A model generated the notes under the pieces. It did not search any database, was not told the origin of the DNA, and saw only the letters and a program-made list of their open reading frames with translations. From NCBI GenBank assembly GCA_000004985.1, contig GG738908.1: 64,000 nt of DNA; one strand, 5' to 3'. This DNA is from Naegleria gruberi (taxonomy: Eukaryota). Numbering within the stretch: position 1 is the stretch's first letter; every line of letters starts with the position of its first letter. Shown in pieces: positions 1 through 53,274 of this stretch. The position numbers and the translations under genes are program-made.

Positions 1-1735
1 ACCATTACCATATAAAGTTAATAATGTCAAGGCTTGATTAAAATTAAAATTATTATTAATAGTTTTTAATGGTGTTATTTGATTTTTTAATATAGTTTTT
101 GAAATTAATTCTTTATAATTATTCAATTCAGTTTTAATATATTGTAATGATGTTAAATTATTTAATGCAATTCTTAAATTTACTACTTTTGGATATAATT
201 CTAATGATTTAGTATTTAAAACATTACATTGTGATGATACATCATTATAACATGTTGTTTTACCTTGATTATATGCTGCATTTACTAAATATTTATAATT
301 TTCTAATTTTAAATCATCAAAATCATTCAATGTTGTATTTAATTCTTGAAATGTATTACTTGCATTTAATAAATTCATATAATTATTAATATTATTATAA
401 TAATTTAAATAAGTTATATTCATATTAGTTAAATTAATTAAAGAATATTGATTTTTAAATTCTATAATAGGTAATACTTGTTTTAAATTATTTAAATTTA
501 TATTTGATAAATCTAATGTATTATTAAATAAAATAGAAATGGATGAAATAACTTGTTGATTAATATTTGAAATACTATTAATAGAATTATAATATTTTGT
601 AATATCACCATTTACAAAAGTATTTAAAAGAGATTTAGATGAAGAATAATAATCAAATAAATTAACATTTGGTAATTCAACAAAAGTATCATTAATATAT
701 TTAATATCTTTAATTAAATTATCAATACAATTAGTTTGTTGTAAAATTGAATTAAAAAATAAAACTTGTGAATAAATATCTTGAATAAATTGTAAAGATG
801 GAATTGAATTGATGGCAAATGTTAAACTTCTCAAATCATCTTTTAATAATTTATACTTGTTTGGTAATGTTTGATTAACATCTTGATTAAATAAATTTAA
901 ATTATTAAAAGTTAAATTTAAATTTGAAATTTGATTAAAAGATAATTGTAATTCATTTAATTTTAATTTTAATTCAAATTCTGATGGTAATTGTGATAAA
1001 GTATTATTCATATAAATTAAATTATTAATTAATGTTATAATTGGTAATTTAAATAAATTAATATTATTTTGTAATATAATAGTTTCATAATATAAATTTG
1101 ATAATTGTACAATATTACTTGTTTTAAAATGTGATAATTCATATTCATATTGATTAAAATATTTAAAATTTAATGTTGTATTCGTTTGATCTTGTAATGT
1201 TTGTATTGTATTTATAGAATAATCTATTGTTGTAATTTTATTTAAATTTAAATTAATTAAATCAATTAAATTAATTAAATTATTTAAAGAATTTGATAAT
1301 CCAATAATAGAATTTTCAAATATCAAAGTAGATGTTTTTAAATTATTAACATGATCATCACCAACTGTAATAAATAATTGTTTTAATTCAATAATTGAAT
1401 CTTGTAATGGTTTAATTCTATTTAAAATATTATTATTTAAATAATTATTTATATTATTAATATTTAATTCAATATTATTTATAGAAGGTACTTGTTCTGT
1501 TATAGAATAAACACATTGATTCCATTCTGATAATTTACTTGCTGTTGGTAATTTACTTAATAAACTTGTTTTAAATTGATTATATTGTGTTTCTAATTGT
1601 GTTACTATTGTTGGTAAATTTTTAGCAAATTCTAATACACTTGATACAAGTGTTTCAATTTCATTATAACTATTTATACCCTTATTTATAAAACTACTAA
1701 TTTCTATATTAGATTGATATGCAAACACAAACCAT
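1..1735 (-). CDS. Asn/Ile/Leu-rich low-complexity protein, function unknown. The 3' end runs off the window edge. Proposed structure: ATG at 1735..1733, a 52-nt intron (1681..1732) immediately after the start codon, then an open frame down to position 1.
   Basis: The minus-strand frame is open continuously from 1680 to 1 and reads MGINSYNEIETLVSSVLEFAKNLPTIV... The only in-frame way to reach an ATG is a GTTTGT...AAATAAG intron after the start codon. The donor is non-consensus, so the 5' structure is tentative. Confidence 0.45.
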
Positions 1736-1827
1736 ACTCTTTTTTAAATTATATATTTTAAATATATTATTATATTTTATAAATATTAATTTATATTGTT
1801 AATATATTATTATATTATTAATAATTA

Positions 1828-2484
1828 TTATATAATTAAAATTAAATTAATAAATATAACATACATTAATAAAGCAATATTTAAAATAACCCATATAAGT
1901 AAAATAATTCTAAAAGCACATATAATTCTCTTTCTCTTTTCATGATCTTTTGCCCATGCACCATAATTATCTAATCTAAATTTTTGATCTCTTTCACCAA
2001 GTTTACAACAACAACAAGAACCAATTGAATAAAACAATGCACCTAAAAAACAACAAAATTCAACAAGTAAAATTCCTAAACAAATTAAACCTAATGCACC
2101 ATATGCACCAATACCTTCAGCATAATCAACTAACATTGATATAGCTGTTTGATTAGAAATATCAAAATTTGTAATTACTTTAGGTGCTGAACGTGTATCT
2201 AATTTCCTTGTTCCATAATTGTATAATGTTAATCTAGGTAATACTGATACTAATTTTACAATATTCTTATCAATACCTGTTCCTAAATTAAATATTGCTG
2301 ATGATAAGGATTCAATACCTTTATTCATAATAGAATCTCTTAATGATGAATATTCATTACTAGTTGCAATTACACCTGTACTTTCTGTACTTTCTGTATA
2401 TTGTACGTTAAATGTTAATAATATTAATACTATTAACATTATGGAATATATTAATATATTATTATAGATTGATAACCTTTTCAT
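1828..2484 (-). CDS. small membrane protein (218 aa) with an N-terminal signal/anchor and a C-terminal cluster of transmembrane segments including a CCCC motif; function unknown
   Basis: Complete ORF with start and stop. Hydrophobic N-terminus (LIYSIMLIVLILLTF) and C-terminal hydrophobic segments (GALGLICLGILLVEFCCFLGALFYSIGSCCCC, IILLIWVILNIALLMYVIFINLILII). Confidence 0.4.
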   Translation of the reverse strand: MKRLSIYNNILIYSIMLIVLILLTFNVQYTESTESTGVIATSNEYSSLRDSIMNKGIESLSSAIFNLGTGIDKNIVKLVSVLPRLTLYNYGTRKLDTRSAPKVITNFDISNQTAISMLVDYAEGIGAYGALGLICLGILLVEFCCFLGALFYSIGSCCCCKLGERDQKFRLDNYGAWAKDHEKRKRIICAFRIILLIWVILNIALLMYVIFINLILII

Positions 2485-24300: not shown

Positions 24301-25521
24301 TTATTTGTTATCATTAAACATGTGCTTTCTTTCAGGGTCTATACCTTCATAAACCATACTCTTTTCGATGGTTTTAACAAATTGGATACCTTTTTGAATT
24401 TCCAAACTCTTTTGCAAAAATTGAATAAATCTTTCATCAGAAATGAAACAATCTGGTGTGATACGTTTCTTTTGATTTTTAACAAGGTCATAATGCTTAA
24501 AAATCCAATACAGAATTTCTAAAGCAAAATCCTTGTCAAATTCAACTTTAAACATGTTACAACCTTGAGTTACAGTCCAACTGCAATAATAACATTGCTT
24601 AGTATTGGTTGCTATCATTTGAAGATACATTTGAGGAATGTAATAAACTGGAACTTCTTCATGGGGTTTCTTCTTAATGTAGGAAAAGGTGAGTGGAATA
24701 TCTCTACCTGACTCACGGTCCTCCTTCTTGACATACTTTTCAACAAAGCATGTTGGACACTTAATTTCTACACATGAATGAATTTCATTAGTATCAATAG
24801 ATTGTAAAAGACCATCTGGGGATGCACCAAGAGCTGGCAACTTTTCAAAGCTCAGTTCATACTTTTCCAAATCTTCCTTTGTAAAAACTTGATTTAATCT
24901 ATCTTCAGTAATGATATAAAATCCAGTTTCACAAAACATGTCATAGTCAAAATGAGAATTCAAAATAGTTGAAACACAATTGAGTTCATGATTAGATCCC
25001 CAATCCATAAAAACTCTCTTAACAATTTCCTCCTTTGGATTTTCATTGGATGGTTGTTTAAGTTGATCAATTTCCTCATCTGTCATACCCAACTCTTTCA
25101 ATTCATCCCTTGTTAAAATTGATTCATAAATTGTACCAACAGTTTCCTTGTCTTGTTTTAAAAATGATTTTGATAAATCTAACATTTTCACAGCTGCAGG
25201 AGAAAAGAATCCGAGAGCTTTACTCAACCTAGAGGCAGTAATTCTATTTGATCTCAACTCGAGCCATTTATCACTTCTTTGTGGAAATAAATGACAATTA
25301 TTTTCATCAATAGGTTCATTAGGAGGATTCAATGGCACATATCTATTAACATAAATTTCCTTGATATCTTCATAGTAAAGTGCTTTCCATTTCACGTTTG
25401 GATTCTCTCCGTTAAATTTGTTATTGTTCTTTTCTTGATGGATTGATAATTTTTCAATACTTTCAACTAGACTTTGCTCATCGGAATGATCAATATGTTC
25501 TTCTTCGAATTGTTGAGACAT
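24301..25521 (-). CDS. YqaJ/lambda-exonuclease-like PD-(D/E)XK nuclease domain protein (viral recombinase-type exonuclease) with an N-terminal acidic extension
   Basis: Motifs RITASRLSKALG (YqaJ motif I), GASPDGLLQS and EIKCPTC (the SPDG ... E-x-K-C-P catalytic core shared by lambda Exo, YqaJ and herpes alkaline nuclease). Convergent with the CASTOR-like gene; only 28 nt separate the two stop codons. Confidence 0.65.
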   Translation of the reverse strand: MSQQFEEEHIDHSDEQSLVESIEKLSIHQEKNNNKFNGENPNVKWKALYYEDIKEIYVNRYVPLNPPNEPIDENNCHLFPQRSDKWLELRSNRITASRLSKALGFFSPAAVKMLDLSKSFLKQDKETVGTIYESILTRDELKELGMTDEEIDQLKQPSNENPKEEIVKRVFMDWGSNHELNCVSTILNSHFDYDMFCETGFYIITEDRLNQVFTKEDLEKYELSFEKLPALGASPDGLLQSIDTNEIHSCVEIKCPTCFVEKYVKKEDRESGRDIPLTFSYIKKKPHEEVPVYYIPQMYLQMIATNTKQCYYCSWTVTQGCNMFKVEFDKDFALEILYWIFKHYDLVKNQKKRITPDCFISDERFIQFLQKSLEIQKGIQFVKTIEKSMVYEGIDPERKHMFNDNK

Positions 25522-25641: not shown

Positions 25642-27166
25642 TTAGTAAGTGAAGGAGAGCAAACCTGTTGTTAAACCTGCTCCTGTACCAATCAAAAGCA
25701 CTCTGTCACCTCTCTTAATTCTGCCATCTTGAACTGCTTCATAGAGAGCCATAGGTATGGATGCAGAAATAGTATTACCAAACTTTTCCAAAGTCTTTAC
25801 AATTCTATCTTTTGGCCATCCAAAGATTTCAGACTGTGTGAGTGAATTATTGTTAAATATGTGAGAAACCGTCCACATAAAGTATTAACTTACCATTGCG
25901 TGGAATGCAGCATGAGAGGCTTGATGAGGCACAGCCCAATCAAATCCTTCGAATTTTCCTGTTGATAATCCTTCTTGGTAATCTTCCATAACTCTAATCA
26001 TTTTAGAAATTGTAAACTCCAAAATCTTTTTTCCGTTCATATCGAAATACATATAATTTGAAGGTGTGTAAATGTGATTAGGGTGGAATTCACTACCACC
26101 AGATCTAATTGATGTATAATCTGTTCCGTCACTAAATGTTCCAAACATGTATTTAGTAAGACGACTCTTATCTTCTGGTTTACTCTTTGTCAAAACTACT
26201 GCAGCAGCTCCGTCACCGATTAAACCTCCAGCATCTGAAATGTTCGATTAAAATGTGAAAAAATTGAAATACTTACGTGGATTTTGTTCAAAATTCAAAC
26301 CAACAGTACTGATTTCGGTTGAGACAATCAAAATTTTTTCATACATTCCACTTTCAATCAAACCAGCACACATGTGGAAGGCAACCATGAATGATAAGCA
26401 TGTAGAATGTACAGAAAGTGATGGTTTTCCTGAATCACCCAATCCCAATTCCTTATGAATGAAACATGAGGTATCTAGAATGAAATTGTGTGAAAAAGTG
26501 TTATCTTTTCTAAAACTTACCTGGAATAGTTCTTTGAGGAGTACCTGATGCATTAACAATTAAATCCAAATCTTCAACCTTCAAATTAGCATTTTTCAAA
26601 GCTTCCAAAGCAGCTTGAGCTCCCATCCATGAAATTGTAATTTCCTTGTCTTTCAATTCTTTGATTTCCTTTTCAGTTAGTACTTTCTTTGTATCAATAA
26701 ATTGATCTACATTCTTTGCAAACTTCTCCTTTCTAACTGTAAGAACGTGTTCTACAGAATTAGCCCATCTTCTCTCTTTGATTCCAGTTGTTTTTTCAGT
26801 AAATCCCTTTGGTTTACCACACAAAACATCAATTGTGGTAGATGAAACAATATTTGGAGGAAGATAACGACCCACTCCAGCAATTTTAACTTTTAAATCC
26901 AACTCTTTAGGATACAATTTGATATGGGTATCTTCTTCTTCTTCTTCCTCTTCTTCTTGTTTTCCACTACATGTATTGAAGGCTACATGTTGATCCGAAC
27001 ATCCAAAACTATTACCACAATCCAATTTTTGAGTTGGGAATAATTGTTGTAATAACATTTTGGTTCTTCTCTCCTTTGTAGTGTTATTATTGCAACATGA
27101 TGAAGAAAATAGTTCATCACCAGAACCTCCTGCAGTGCTATTCTTATTGTGGTGGTTACAGTTCAT
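25642..27166 (-). CDS. 3-oxoacyl-ACP synthase III (FabH/KAS III)-like condensing enzyme with an ~85-aa eukaryote-specific N-terminal extension. Exons 27166..26521, 26474..26277, 26234..25894 and 25833..25642; introns of 46, 42 and 60 nt.
   Basis: FabH N-terminus KVKIAGVGRYLPPNIVSS. Catalytic Cys in GDSGKPSLSVHSTCLSFMVAF, His in FDWAVPHQASHAAFHAM, Asn in FGNTISASIPMAL. C-terminal GDRVLLIGTGAGLTTG. All introns are GTAAGT...AG and the phases are consistent. Confidence 0.75.
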
Positions 27167-27711: not shown

Positions 27712-30700
27712 ATGGAAACTCTAGATATTGAAAATGATATCATTCCAACTATCAAATCGAGAACAAAGAAAAGAGCTTCTAAATCTTCAATTCCTCTCCA
27801 AGACATTACTCAAAAAGTGTTGAACAAGGGAAATGTGATTGCTAAGCAATGCGATGAAGATTATTCGAAAGGTAAAAAGGCGTTAAAAAGGGAATCAGAT
27901 GATGAAGAAATTGCTTCTCCAATCCCAATCAAATCTAGAATGCCAACGAGAAAGCCTTTGAACAAGAATACTGTTGAGGCAAAGCAACCTAAGAGAAAGA
28001 TCTCCCTTCCTTTAATTTCTTCCTCGGATGAAGAAGATGATTTTGAAGAATTCAAACAAACTAAGAGAGTAATAAGGAGAACAACAAGACCTCCAAAGAA
28101 GGTGAAGTTTGAAGAAAGTAGTGGTTCAGAGTTTGAGGAAAGCAGCCCTCAAGTAGTGTTCGATATTAGCAGTGATGAAGATAGTGTTGAGATTTTCAAA
28201 TCTGAGAAGAAGGAAATTATAAAGAAGGAAGTGGTTTTATCTGAGAGTGAAGAAAGCAGTGCTGATGAAGAAGCAGAAGAACAAGATGAGGAACTAATGT
28301 TAGATGAAGAGGAGGACTTTACTTCATCCTCCTCTGAAGAAGATTCGGAAGATGATGATTATCAACCAAAGAAAAGCAAGCCTCAAAGGAAAGCTGCTTC
28401 CAAACCTGTTGCTCCCAAGCCAAGAAAGAATGAAAGGGTTCTCTCTGATGATGAAATGGGCTCTGAAGAGGAAACCAAAGAAAAGCCAAAGGTTACTCTC
28501 ACTATTAAGAAAAAGAAAACTCCTGGCGAATTGAGACAATCTGAGAATGGTTGGTGCTTTGATGTGAAGAATGATCATTACGTTCTCAAGATTGGTGATG
28601 ATACTTACGGTTTTGCTCTATCTGCTGATATATTCGAAAAGCTCTACTCTCACCAACAGATCGGAGTTAAATGGTTAGTTGAGAGACATTTTGCTTCATC
28701 TTTAAAAGGTGGTTTATTAGCAGATGATATGGGACTTGGTAAGACAATTCAAATTTCCTCATTCATTCATGGTTTGTTTCTAACTCAGAAAGCTTCAAGA
28801 GTATTGGTAATTTGTCCAAACTCAGTGGTAGGAAATTGGCAGGTAAGTTACTGTTTTTTTTAATGAAATGTAATTCCATAACAGAAAGAGTTAGAAAAGT
28901 GGGGAGGCGATCAGATTAAGGGTGTTGTTATTTTCCACCAAGTTGGCAAAGCATCTTCAACAAACAGAAAGAGACAAGGTTTTGTAAAGGAGTTTGAGAA
29001 GTATGCAAAACAGGGCGGTGCTGTCATGTTGTCCACCTATCAAACCATAGCAAACCATGTTGAATATCTATCAAAATCCTTTTCAGGTGACAAACTTTTG
29101 GATTCGATCATCATAGATGAAGCCCACAAAATTAAGAATAAGGATGCCAAATGCTCAATGGCTTTGAAAACTCTTGGATCTGCCTCAAAGTTTGGTCTTA
29201 CTGGCACTCCCATAATGAACAAGTTGGTAAGTCATTTTTCAAGTACAGTTACTAATCTGTTTTCCCATCCAATGTACAATAGACTGAATTGTATTCTATT
29301 TACTCTTGGTGTTTTGGAGAAGATTTGCTTGGATCGGTATCAGAGTTCAGTTCCAATTATTCCACACCAATTAATCAGAGCACAAGAAGGGATGCAAACT
29401 ATACTCAAAAAATGGCTGGAAACAGAGCAGCAGATGATTTGAGAGAATTGGTTAAGCCATACCTTTTGATGAGAGGGAAAAACGCAGTCCTTACCATAGA
29501 TAAGAATTTATACAAGTCATCAAGCAACACAAGTGCTAAAATAGGTCAAAAGAATGATCTGATTGTTTGGTGCAAGCTCACTGATGAACAACAACATTGG
29601 TATAAGGAATATCTATCATCTGATGACGTCAAACAAGTGCTTAATAAGACTATGAGTGCCCTTGTTGGTATAGTTATTTTGAAGCAAGTTTGTAATCATG
29701 CCATTATGTGTAGTGGTTATGACGAAATAATGAAGAAAAAGAAAAAAGAACTTGAAGAGGAGGCAAAAGAAGACTTTGGAGCAGACAGCAGCGATGAAGA
29801 TTTCATTGAGGAGAGTGAAGTAGCTCCTTCCATGTCCTTTGATATGGATGATTTAGATGATAAACAGAGAAAAGCAATGGAAAGAAGGCTTAAAAAGATT
29901 CAAGACGATTTGATTAAGGAAAGAATCAGAAATGAACCAATCGAACAATTGATATCTTCTTCCGTTAAAGCACAATTGGTAAAGCACCTTGTTGAGAAAT
30001 GCAACGAAGAAGGACATAGGGTATTGATATTTTCTCAATACACAAGAATGTTGGACATTATTGGACATGTTTTAAAAAGTATGAAGGTAAAATTCAATAG
30101 AATTGATGGAAGTGTTACAAGACACCAAGACAGAACCCAATTGGTGGACGAGTTCAATGAAAATGAGAAGATTAAGTGCTTTATTCTAAGCTCTCAGGTA
30201 TGTTTGGTTTAAATTTATGGAGCTAACAATAATTCGTACAGGCGGGAGGTGTTGGACTTAACCTTGTTTCAGCTTCAAGAGTTATTATTGTTGATGCAAA
30301 CTTTAATCCATCCATAGATGAACAATCAGTTGACCGATGTTACAGAATTGGTCAAAAAGAGAATGTGATTGTTTATAGATTGATTTCAGCAGGTACAATT
30401 GAGGAATATATTTACAAAAGGTAAGTTAAAATCAAATTACTAATTCTTACCACTACGACAGACAAGTAAGCAAGACAACCGTATCTAGAACAGCAACTAT
30501 TGCGTCAAATCAATACAGATATTTGTCTCATGCAGATCTAGAAGAAATGTTCACCCTTAAAAAAACAAGTCATAGTGAAACATGCTCCAGAATGAATAGA
30601 ATTCACTCCAAAGATAGAAGAGATTGTGATGGGCTTGAGGAGCATATTGAAAGTTTGAAGCAAATGGAAAACGTTGTTGGCATATCAGATCATGATGTAT

Positions 30701-51621: not shown

Positions 51622-53274
51622 ATGAAATTTCAAATCAATAAGGAGCAAATACAGCAATACTTTCATCTACCATTGGAAGAGGCTGCTATCAAGTTGGGAT
51701 GTTGCTCCTCTGTTCTGAAGAGAACATGTAGACAATTAGGTATTAAACGATGGCCCTACCGAAGAATGAAAAGCCTCTCAAAACGACAAAATCAACTCCA
51801 ACAACAATTAACAACCCTCCACGATCAATACATGAAGAGTAGGAAACAATTGGAAGATGTTGAAGGAGAGATGGATGTTATTATCAAGGAAGAATTGAGT
51901 GGTATTGCTGAAGGTGCTACTGTCATTATAGATGATGCAAATATTGATGTTGATCCAACACTGGATTATGATCAGAATGATATTATTAATATTAATACTG
52001 CTTCTTCTTCAACTGGTAATCCTACTACTTTTAACTTTAATAACAACTTTGAAATCATGTTGATTCCTTCATCATCAACATCATCAACATCTTCACCACC
52101 TTCAAGTAGTACATTGGCATCATCGTCTTCGGTATCATCTCTTCCTAATCATCATGTACATACATCATCCTCATATGTTTCTCCACAACAACAACAACCA
52201 TCAAAACCTGTTATTTCTCCATCACAACAACATGTTATTAGAGATGTTGAGTTGAACATGCAGCACAACAACAATAGCAACATGGATATGATGATGCCTA
52301 TTCATAATGCGAGTTCTAATTCGTTCACTGCTCCATCCACATCCTTCAATAACAACCTTCATCGTACAATGTGTGAATCCAATAATGGAGATCCAATTTC
52401 AATGACTACTAACATGCATATTTCTCCTCAGCAACAACAAGTAGGTCATCAGCAACATGCTAACAATCTTTGCAATACATCATTACATGAATCATTTGAC
52501 CATGCTTTTGGAAATGTTGTGAATAATAATCAATTTATGCAATCTTCGCATGTTGATGCTAATAAGCACTCATGTAATGGAATATCAAATACAGCATCAT
52601 CAAGTAGTAGTGGATGGAATAATGAAAAATCAGAATTGGATACATCTCAATATAATAATTTGGATAATGAACACTCGTTCGATGCATCTGTACATGAATC
52701 AATTAATACTGCTGATTATACAACGAGAGGGAGAGGAGGTTATTCATTTCCAAATCATAAACATGATTCAAGTAGGTCACCATCATCAAATTATGCCATG
52801 CAACATGTGGAGCCATGTTTTAGACCATTAATTTCAACATTGGATGGAGTGAATGTAAATGCTGCACTAACTAATGATAGAGGAGTGTTAATGTGGTTTT
52901 CTAAGGGGCTAATGGAAACACTCCCATCCTATTTTAATACAAAGGCAGTGAATAAGGATTATACTAAGGATGATACATTTAAAGGATCAACTATTGATGT
53001 ATATGAATCGTTTTATAGAAGAAGAGCCACACATGGAACTATTAGAATGATTCAGTGCTTTTTTGAAAGATATGTAGTGGTGGATAGTCATGGAGTGATG
53101 CTTGATCATTACTCTGCGCATCCATCTGCTGGATCGCATTACATGTGGTATTTGCATGTGAGGAAGGAAACTGATTTTTCTCTCATTTCATCTTATTTCA
53201 ATCCTTCCGATAGAAATAAGGCACTTCAGTTTGGGGTACCTTATACTTTCGAATTGGAGGATGACAACAAGTAG
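51622..53274 (+). CDS. RWP-RK domain transcription factor
   Basis: N-terminal FHLPLEEAAIKLGCCSSVLKRTCRQLGIKRWPYRRMKS (RWPxRK motif) followed by Ser/Asn/Gln-rich low complexity and a conserved C-terminal block (...RMIQCFFERYVVVDSHGVMLDHYSAHPSAG...). Preceded by an unusually C-rich ~600-nt upstream leader. Confidence 0.75.
   Translation: MKFQINKEQIQQYFHLPLEEAAIKLGCCSSVLKRTCRQLGIKRWPYRRMKSLSKRQNQLQQQLTTLHDQYMKSRKQLEDVEGEMDVIIKEELSGIAEGATVIIDDANIDVDPTLDYDQNDIININTASSSTGNPTTFNFNNNFEIMLIPSSSTSSTSSPPSSSTLASSSSVSSLPNHHVHTSSSYVSPQQQQPSKPVISPSQQHVIRDVELNMQHNNNSNMDMMMPIHNASSNSFTAPSTSFNNNLHRTMCESNNGDPISMTTNMHISPQQQQVGHQQHANNLCNTSLHESFDHAFGNVVNNNQFMQSSHVDANKHSCNGISNTASSSSSGWNNEKSELDTSQYNNLDNEHSFDASVHESINTADYTTRGRGGYSFPNHKHDSSRSPSSNYAMQHVEPCFRPLISTLDGVNVNAALTNDRGVLMWFSKGLMETLPSYFNTKAVNKDYTKDDTFKGSTIDVYESFYRRRATHGTIRMIQCFFERYVVVDSHGVMLDHYSAHPSAGSHYMWYLHVRKETDFSLISSYFNPSDRNKALQFGVPYTFELEDDNK

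Follow-up and report, generated by a model that had tools for sequence, protein, structure and literature searches.

What is a condensing enzyme of bacterial type doing in the nuclear genome of Naegleria gruberi? The question is raised by a gene on the minus strand of a 64,000-nucleotide stretch of contig GG738908.1 (assembly GCA_000004985.1; the whole stretch is referred to here as the window), which encodes a protein with the fold of β-ketoacyl-ACP synthase III (KAS III; ACP, acyl carrier protein). An original prediction, made from the sequence without database searches, described it as a FabH-type KAS III carrying an N-terminal extension, and offered as candidates a horizontally acquired enzyme of specialized metabolism or a mitochondrial KAS III. 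The gene is known (NAEGRDRAFT_73827) but uncharacterized; its database annotation is merely "predicted protein", and nothing was retrieved when the literature was searched for its locus tag or accession, or for Naegleria in connection with FabH or KAS III. The evidence assembled below makes it very probable that this is a bacterial-derived KAS III enzyme, now resident in the nuclear genome, that is not FabH but resembles CorB and the PRK07204 family, and it brings to light a conserved N-terminal motif that could direct the enzyme to peroxisomes.

Gene model and the condensing-enzyme domain

The open reading frame (ORF) runs from an ATG at 27166 to a TAA stop at 25644-25642 and is divided into four exons that together encode a spliced product of 458 aa (Table 1). 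Three GTAAGT...AG introns are needed to hold the frame open as far as the TAA; they measure 46, 42 and 60 nt, in agreement with the 42-60 nt first proposed, and their removal restores one open frame. From Met37 onward, the product has the same sequence as the 422-aa protein RefSeq XP_002671122.1 (UniProt D2VXQ0), so the splicing given here is that of the accepted model. Upstream of the ATG lie 20 stop-free codons with no earlier start codon.

Both Pfam domains of the family are recognized in the protein (ACP_syn_III, 51.7 bits; ACP_syn_III_C, 89.3 bits), and the catalytic triad is intact. It consists of Cys241 (in the motif HSTC), His385 (PHQAS) and Asn415 (GNTISAS), which align with C112, H244 and N274 of E. 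coli FabH and with C121, H264 and N292 of CorB. The fold, the triad and the three motifs quoted in the original prediction are therefore borne out.

The nearest solved relatives by sequence are CorB (252 bits) and MxnB (238 bits), matched over the full domain (PDB 4yuc / 4v2p). These are the chain-interconnecting ketosynthases of corallopyronin and myxopyronin synthesis, which join two acyl chains head to head to give an α-pyrone, and to our knowledge they are the only members of a large and mostly uncharacterized bacterial clade to have been studied. The best NCBIfam model is PRK07204 (NF005541), at 288 bits against a cutoff of 402, and the five bacterial homologues tested, together with CorB, likewise score below that cutoff (300-349 bits). 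Fold comparisons all rest on an AlphaFold model of the orthologue from Willaertia (mean pLDDT 86), which superposes on MxnB and CorB at the level of the fold.

The term "FabH-type" was found to hold for the fold and the triad, but not for FabH orthology. Scores against the curated FabH models are below their cutoffs (TIGR00747 fabH, 202.4 vs 292.1 bits; PRK09352, 202.7 vs 249 bits), and this is also the case for the Willaertia and Acrasis-group orthologues. When the sequence is compared with solved structures, CorB (5e-74) and MxnB (9e-70) rank ahead of Aquifex FabH, the best of the FabH proteins (5e-50), and of E. coli FabH (about 1e-36). The template modeling (TM) scores of the Willaertia model, as target, are 0.94-0.95 for MxnB, 0.92 for CorB and 0.80-0.91 for FabH structures. 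In trees built by neighbor-joining from corrected p-distances over 330 columns, with 100 bootstraps, the four FabH sequences are split from all others in 100/100 replicates. The differences extend to individual residues. R36, R151, N247 and R249 of E. coli FabH, which bind coenzyme A (CoA) or ACP, are replaced in Naegleria by T126, P281, S388 and A390; Phe87, which closes the small acyl pocket, by I214; and F304 and G306 by T445 and A447. In the R151, N247, F304 and G306 columns the bacterial clade has the Naegleria residue, and CorB and MxnB have the same or a similar one, and in the R36, R249 and F87 columns the FabH residue is lost throughout the clade, with substitutes that vary. Because curated cutoffs, solved-structure scores, fold and phylogeny all agree, the Naegleria protein is, by these comparisons, not a FabH orthologue. 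A closer affinity to type III polyketide synthases (PKS), which had been raised as an alternative placement, was not seen either, since the Chal_sti_synt_N match (24.7 bits) is below its cutoff of 27, there is no match to the C-domain, and stilbene synthase is found at 6e-9 compared with 8e-69 for CorB; by these scores, such affinity is negligible.

Compared with CorB, FabH and all bacterial homologues, the Naegleria enzyme carries an internal insertion of about 37 aa. The HMMER alignment to CorB breaks at this point, and the 252-bit match is continuous only once the N-terminal extension and the insertion have been removed. The insertion is conserved in Naegleria, Willaertia, the P0144 group and the environmental sequence P0013, and Acrasis kona has a similar stretch, judged by eye. 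An unspliced intron was considered and rejected, as different genera share the stretch in their protein sequences and it recurs in contigs that lack introns and resemble transcripts. In the AlphaFold model it forms three short helices (pLDDT 64-78), and it follows the β1-β2 element that lines the channel of CorB, where it may serve as a lid or docking surface.

Bacterial ancestry and spread in Heterolobosea

The closest proteins, in which the catalytic residues are conserved, are those of N. fowleri, at 72% identity, and of Willaertia magna, at 64%. Beyond Heterolobosea, the only matches are bacterial proteins of about 330 aa with no more than 44% identity, which belong to Myxococcota, Chloroflexota, Planctomycetota and Deinococcota or were found in many metagenomes. 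As the sole close relatives outside Heterolobosea are bacterial, the horizontal acquisition suggested at the outset is supported. Further members were sought by exhaustive profile-free searches, with exon 1 and then with an environmental relative, and this added Acrasis kona, a second Naegleria species and several environmental sequences. In the trees, the eukaryote-type sequences form one clade (83-87% bootstrap). Two points count against the phylogeny: it was built by neighbor-joining and not by maximum likelihood, and the nominal bacterial sister group has a bootstrap value of 25%.

Nearest relatives outside Heterolobosea that are all bacterial might also be expected of bacterial contamination, or of a pseudogene decaying after transfer. 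The introns speak against this, as all three have the GTAAGT donor of the host and intron 3 matches the third intron of the Willaertia magna gene exactly in position and phase, which excludes contamination and recent transfer; another Willaertia intron is no more than two codons away from intron 1. Also contrary to an artefact are the host-like G+C content of the gene (about 33%, in a window of about 32% where intergenic DNA falls to 16%), eukaryotic neighbors, an intact frame, conserved catalytic residues, and intron-free, transcript-like contigs of relatives. The shared intron and the presence of orthologues in three genera refute this explanation, and it retains hardly any credibility.

An environmental orthologue (L009, 6001-7370), from a relative of Acrasis, sits on a 27-kb intron-bearing contig, and its introns occupy positions different from those of Naegleria, which implies independent intron gain after transfer. 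Taken together, the distribution, tree and introns indicate an old acquisition from bacteria, which goes back to an ancestor of Naegleria, Willaertia and Acrasis, the tetramitian heteroloboseans.

The N-terminal extension and its PTS2-like motif

The extension is joined to the first β-strands of the enzyme domain in one exon and one frame, and in the relatives P0013, P0144 and P0296 (Acrasis kona) extension and domain are fused in single intron-free ORFs, some of them on transcript-like contigs, so it is not a separate upstream gene. The extension of about 85 aa that had been predicted is thus part of the gene, its length being closer to 88 aa. One of the transcript-like environmental contigs (L002) shows a perfect inverted copy of its bases 1-118 at 120-237, a fold-back artefact of assembly or cDNA synthesis that leaves the 5' end of P0013 uncertain.

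The Cys-rich and poly-Glu character stressed in the original prediction is present in Naegleria, but these runs proved to be lineage-specific: of the six Cys residues in this region, conservation was seen for just one, and the acidic stretch is shared by Naegleria and Willaertia but missing from the Acrasis group. The conserved part is instead the motif RTKMLLQQLFP at aa 34-44. In the Willaertia protein as modeled by AlphaFold, the extension is disordered but for one helix that covers the motif (residues 13-28).

The consensus of this motif, R-x3-[LI]-x2-[HQ]-[LI]-x-P, is present in 11/11 eukaryote-type orthologues, and its flanks are not conserved. In an alignment of eight N-termini, R34, L38, L42 and P44 are invariant. 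The corresponding sequences are RSQMLLQHLFP in N. fowleri, RRNILLNHLFP in Willaertia and RTDILLGHLNP in Acrasis, while those of two environmental orthologues, P0013 (RLTILQNHLFP) and P0298 (RLRIIQQHISP), are both canonical RLx5H[LI]. In all 11, the conserved residues are those of positions 1, 5, 8 and 9 (R, L/I, H/Q, L/I) of the nonapeptide known as the type 2 peroxisomal targeting signal (PTS2). The core nonapeptide pattern, not counting the trailing Pro, is expected about 3e-4 times per N-terminus, and was matched at one other place among the 27,299 residues of ORFs in the window. This second match, RQNQLQQQL, is internal (position 57 of a stop-free stretch) in an ORF at 51622-53274 (+) with an RWP-RK-like signature (RWPYRR), and is probably due to chance.

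Downstream of the motif, at a distance of 16-27 residues, a C-[SN]-[GVS] sequence occurs in 10/11 orthologues, represented in N. gruberi by Cys66-Ser-Gly, a candidate site for presequence processing. Plant PTS2 cleavage sites are characterized by a Cys at P2 (PMC3830196), and the PTS2 of plant thiolase has the form RQx5HL (PMC9328179). Naegleria possesses Pex7, and one or more PTS2 proteins have been predicted in it (PMC7549135, PMC3178647).

The RefSeq model of N. gruberi and the model of N. fowleri (P0001) both begin at an internal Met, and aa 1-36 of the product described here correspond to 27059-27166 of the window. A start at the internal Met cuts through the conserved motif, which loses its invariant Arg. 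The residues preceding this Met are kept across genera (ERRT[KR]M, MRRSQM and ERRRNI), pointing to the ATG at 27166 as the true start, and the annotated starts of the two Naegleria genes are probably truncated in such a way that a conserved signal has been cut off.

Several observations weigh against peroxisomal import. When compared with five published PTS2 patterns (E-I, PMC9512073), RTKMLLQQL fails all five, solely because of the Thr at position 2, and in all 9/11 orthologues fail at this position, where they have Thr, Ser or Arg; P0013 and P0298 pass. A Thr at position 2 of PTS2 is without experimental validation (PMC9328179). The motif starts rather far from the N-terminus in N. gruberi and N. 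fowleri (residues 29-34), the downstream Cys is missing in P0013, and no localization data for the Naegleria protein were found in the literature search. The departure from the consensus in most orthologues and the lack of published localization would suit a cytosolic or otherwise non-peroxisomal condensing enzyme, specialized for polyketide or lipid synthesis, in which the N-terminal helix acts as a regulatory or protein-interaction motif. The evidence from the enzyme domain is the same in both cases, and the protein ends in SFTY and so lacks a C-terminal PTS1. Against a cytosolic enzyme stand the one-to-one coincidence of the conserved positions with those critical in PTS2, the canonical signals of two orthologues, the Cys at a distance like that of a processing site, and the absence of partner genes (ACP, ligase or reductase) nearby. 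We regard a cytosolic role as possible but rather unlikely, and incline, if only slightly, to import of the condensing enzyme into peroxisomes by way of the PTS2-like signal.

A third destination, the mitochondrion, was one of the two candidates originally put forward, with the enzyme starting type II fatty-acid synthesis from acetyl-CoA and malonyl-ACP. The protein is indeed extended at its N-terminus, the first residues of some orthologues are rich in Arg (e.g., P0144, MTEIERRRTRVLL), and in Discoba a PTS2-like presequence can overlap with a mitochondrial one (PMC9512073). The extension appears unlike a mitochondrial presequence, however, being net acidic (9 K+R vs 16 D+E overall, and 1 basic vs 2 acidic among the first 30 residues), and it carries the conserved PTS2-like motif. 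The enzyme domain also argues against the role of a KAS III in this pathway, as the FabH residues for CoA/ACP binding are gone and the protein falls below FabH thresholds and outside the FabH clade. A KAS I/II-type "3-oxoacyl-ACP synthase, mitochondrial" is already listed in the N. gruberi mitochondrial proteome, which also speaks against this role. The present protein does not appear among the entries of that list available to us, the fatty-acid ones included, and this is a weak indication in the same direction. The mitochondrial candidate is accordingly set aside as improbable.

Table 1. Coordinates in the window of the condensing-enzyme gene and its parts.
Feature	Position	Strand	Description
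Whole gene, ATG to stop	25642..27166	-	458-aa KAS III-fold condensing enzyme
Exon 1 (aa 1-215 + 1 nt)	26521..27166	-	Extension, start of enzyme domain, internal insertion
Intron 1	26475..26520	-	46 nt, GTAAGT..TAG, phase 1, after aa 215
Exon 2	26277..26474	-	Catalytic Cys241 at 26400-26398
Intron 2	26235..26276	-	42 nt, GTAAGT..CAG, phase 1, after aa 281
Exon 3	25894..26234	-	Catalytic His385 at 25926-25924
Intron 3	25834..25893	-	60 nt, GTAAGT..CAG, phase 0, between AFHAM and SEIF
Exon 4	25642..25833	-	Catalytic Asn415 at 25776-25774, TAA stop
N-terminal extension (aa 1-88)	26903..27166	-	Net acidic, mostly low-complexity, present in no bacterial homologue
PTS2-like motif RTKMLLQQLFP (aa 34-44)	27035..27067	-	Consensus R-x3-[LI]-x2-[HQ]-[LI]-x-P
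Cys66-Ser-Gly	26963..26971	-	24 residues past the nonapeptide, candidate presequence-processing site
Poly-Glu run E71-E78, D79	26930..26956	-	Acidic stretch in Naegleria and Willaertia, missing from the Acrasis group
Insertion within the enzyme domain, ~37 aa (aa 137-173)	26648..26758	-	Follows the ERRW strand; no counterpart in CorB, FabH or any bacterial homologue

Possible chemistry, gene neighborhood and comparison with known systems

In CorB, a wide T-shaped cavity and Pro266, which follows the catalytic His-Gln and widens the His-Asn clamp, have been tied to the non-decarboxylative, head-to-head condensation of that enzyme (PMC5506619). Two residues caution against assuming the same reaction in Naegleria. 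The column of Pro266 is occupied by Ala387 (in PHQAS), as in FabH, and where the clade has the invariant Phe345, CorB and MxnB have Leu, so that the chemistry of CorB is not simply transferable. In the 117 database homologues (114 bacterial and 3 of eukaryote type), the Pro266 column has Ala in 73 and Pro in 30. The column of E. coli G152 is also distinctive, with a Glu that is found in 114/117 of the homologues listed and in CorB and MxnB, and is near-invariant in the bacterial clade; in every eukaryote-type sequence it is replaced by a His (His282 in N. gruberi, window 26234-26232). His282 and Phe345 are candidate determinants of specificity. A catalytic Glu that extends from the partner subunit serves as base in PpyS (E105) and OleA (E117) (PMC4578411), and it is without a counterpart here, as the PpyS E105 column is occupied by Ile214 in Naegleria and by Val94 in CorB.

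After transfer, the gene gained introns, the surface insertion of about 37 aa by the substrate-channel loop, and the N-terminal presequence. If the enzyme is indeed peroxisomal, its action may be envisaged as follows. Pex7 would bind the PTS2-like helix and bring about import into peroxisomes, where the presequence would perhaps be cut near the Cys. Since peroxisomes have no ACP, the substrates would be acyl-CoA thioesters. One acyl-CoA would acylate Cys241, and His385 and Asn415 would drive a Claisen condensation with a second thioester, either malonyl-CoA, in a decarboxylative reaction, or a β-oxidation intermediate of the 3-oxoacyl-CoA type, in a non-decarboxylative one like that of CorB. 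The malonyl-CoA route is left open by Ala387 and the FabH-like PHQA motif, and the head-to-head, pyrone-type route by the kinship with CorB and by the acyl-CoA and 3-oxoacyl-CoA that peroxisomes supply. The product would be a β-keto or pyrone-type lipid, and fatty-acid synthesis would not be primed. Both the CoA substrates and the type of condensation are points that we infer.

For the combined statement, that a bacterial-derived CorB/PRK07204-like enzyme is targeted to peroxisomes and acts on acyl-CoA, we see the chances as evenly balanced. A pyrone or head-to-head product is at best unlikely, and more doubtful again is the fully specified version, a domesticated CorB-like peroxisomal ketosynthase with a variant PTS2 (Thr/Ser at position 2) that converts acyl-CoA and 3-oxoacyl-CoA to dialkyl-pyrone or β-keto lipids. 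Pex7-like paralogues, Gcp1-3, occur in a few eukaryote lineages that include the heteroloboseans (PMC8134430), and the reading of a non-canonical signal by one of these is a more remote idea.

Were the targeting confirmed, a KAS III-type enzyme that forms carbon-carbon bonds would be placed in heterolobosean peroxisomes beside the degradative thiolase, so that an organelle on which the lipid-based metabolism of Naegleria centers would gain a biosynthetic branch, and the accepted PTS2 consensus would be widened at position 2. We know of no other peroxisome with a condensing enzyme of the KAS III type, and this would then be the first. A peroxisomal pyrone or β-keto lipid product, if real, would be a possible source of signaling lipids in Naegleria. 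Animals lack the gene, and the pathogen N. fowleri has it in conserved form (72% identity), making it a candidate selective target or marker. Whatever its function, it offers a clean case of a bacterial gene domesticated in a eukaryote, in which one intron is shared and both a presequence and an insertion have been added.

The neighborhood of the gene is not a PKS cluster, unlike those of CorB and MxnB; the flanking genes encode a YqaJ-like protein and an SNF2 helicase. Directly downstream (24301-25521, minus strand) is an intronless ORF of 406 aa in which Pfam recognizes (2.5e-11) a viral recombinase/exonuclease domain of YqaJ-like type, which is unusual on a eukaryotic chromosome and may be derived from a virus or mobile element. 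Upstream, at a distance of 545 bp from the KAS III start, a divergent gene (27712-28863, plus strand) has an acidic, Ser-rich N-terminus, after which an SNF2-related helicase domain begins, and runs on past this ORF. The first 2000 nt of the window (1-2000) are of extremely low G+C content (15.8% vs about 32% elsewhere in the window).

Five bacterial KAS III loci were sampled, and in two of them the gene lies in an Ole-like six-gene cluster (L004, 7369-13748; L005, 2606-9002). Its partners there are a PRK06849 ATP-grasp-like protein, an OleD-like reductase, a lactonase-like protein of the metallo-β-lactamase fold, an adenylate-forming enzyme (TIGR02304, "F390 synthetase-related") and an uncharacterized protein of about 380 aa. 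Another locus shares just the last of these, and the remaining two have unrelated neighbors. The cluster looks like an uncharacterized Ole- or β-lactone-like pathway, and a literature search for a bacterial F390/KAS III/ATP-grasp cluster retrieved nothing. Contexts as heterogeneous as these lend little weight to any assignment of function, the proposed one included. When the window and the Willaertia locus were searched by tblastn for the five cluster partners, only the KAS III gene itself was matched, so there is no co-transferred cluster nearby.

Among known systems, the closest in sequence are the PRK07204-like bacterial KAS III proteins of about 330 aa (41-44% BLASTP identity, E about 1e-85), which share with the Naegleria protein its best NCBIfam model and its diagnostic residues, and differ from it in having neither the extension nor the insertion. 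CorB and MxnB have in common with it the triad, the residues P281, S388 and I417, the T445-G-[AS]-G loop and a small residue in place of Phe87. Identity to them is merely about 35%, however, and they act on chains tethered to carrier proteins within PKS clusters, whereas the Naegleria gene is solitary and eukaryotic, and encodes a presequence and a 37-aa insertion. FabH and plastid KAS III (E. coli b1091 and the plant enzymes) are alike in fold, in both Pfam domains, in the triad and in the PHQA motif, but the Naegleria gene is not adjacent to fab genes. OleA and PpyS also have a KAS III-like fold, and the condensation of two acyl thioesters is a chemistry that the Naegleria enzyme may share with them; their Glu base is gone, however, and the PDB match is far weaker (about 6e-17 for OleA). 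With regard to targeting, the comparison is with the PTS2 of peroxisomal thiolases, such as the RQx5HL of plant KAT, from which most orthologues differ in having T, S or R at position 2, and N. gruberi also in having Gln and not His at position 8. The resemblance lies in the N-terminal R-x-x-x-L-L-x-H-L helix, in the Cys about 20 residues farther on, and in the fact that in both cases the presequence is borne by an enzyme of the thiolase superfamily.

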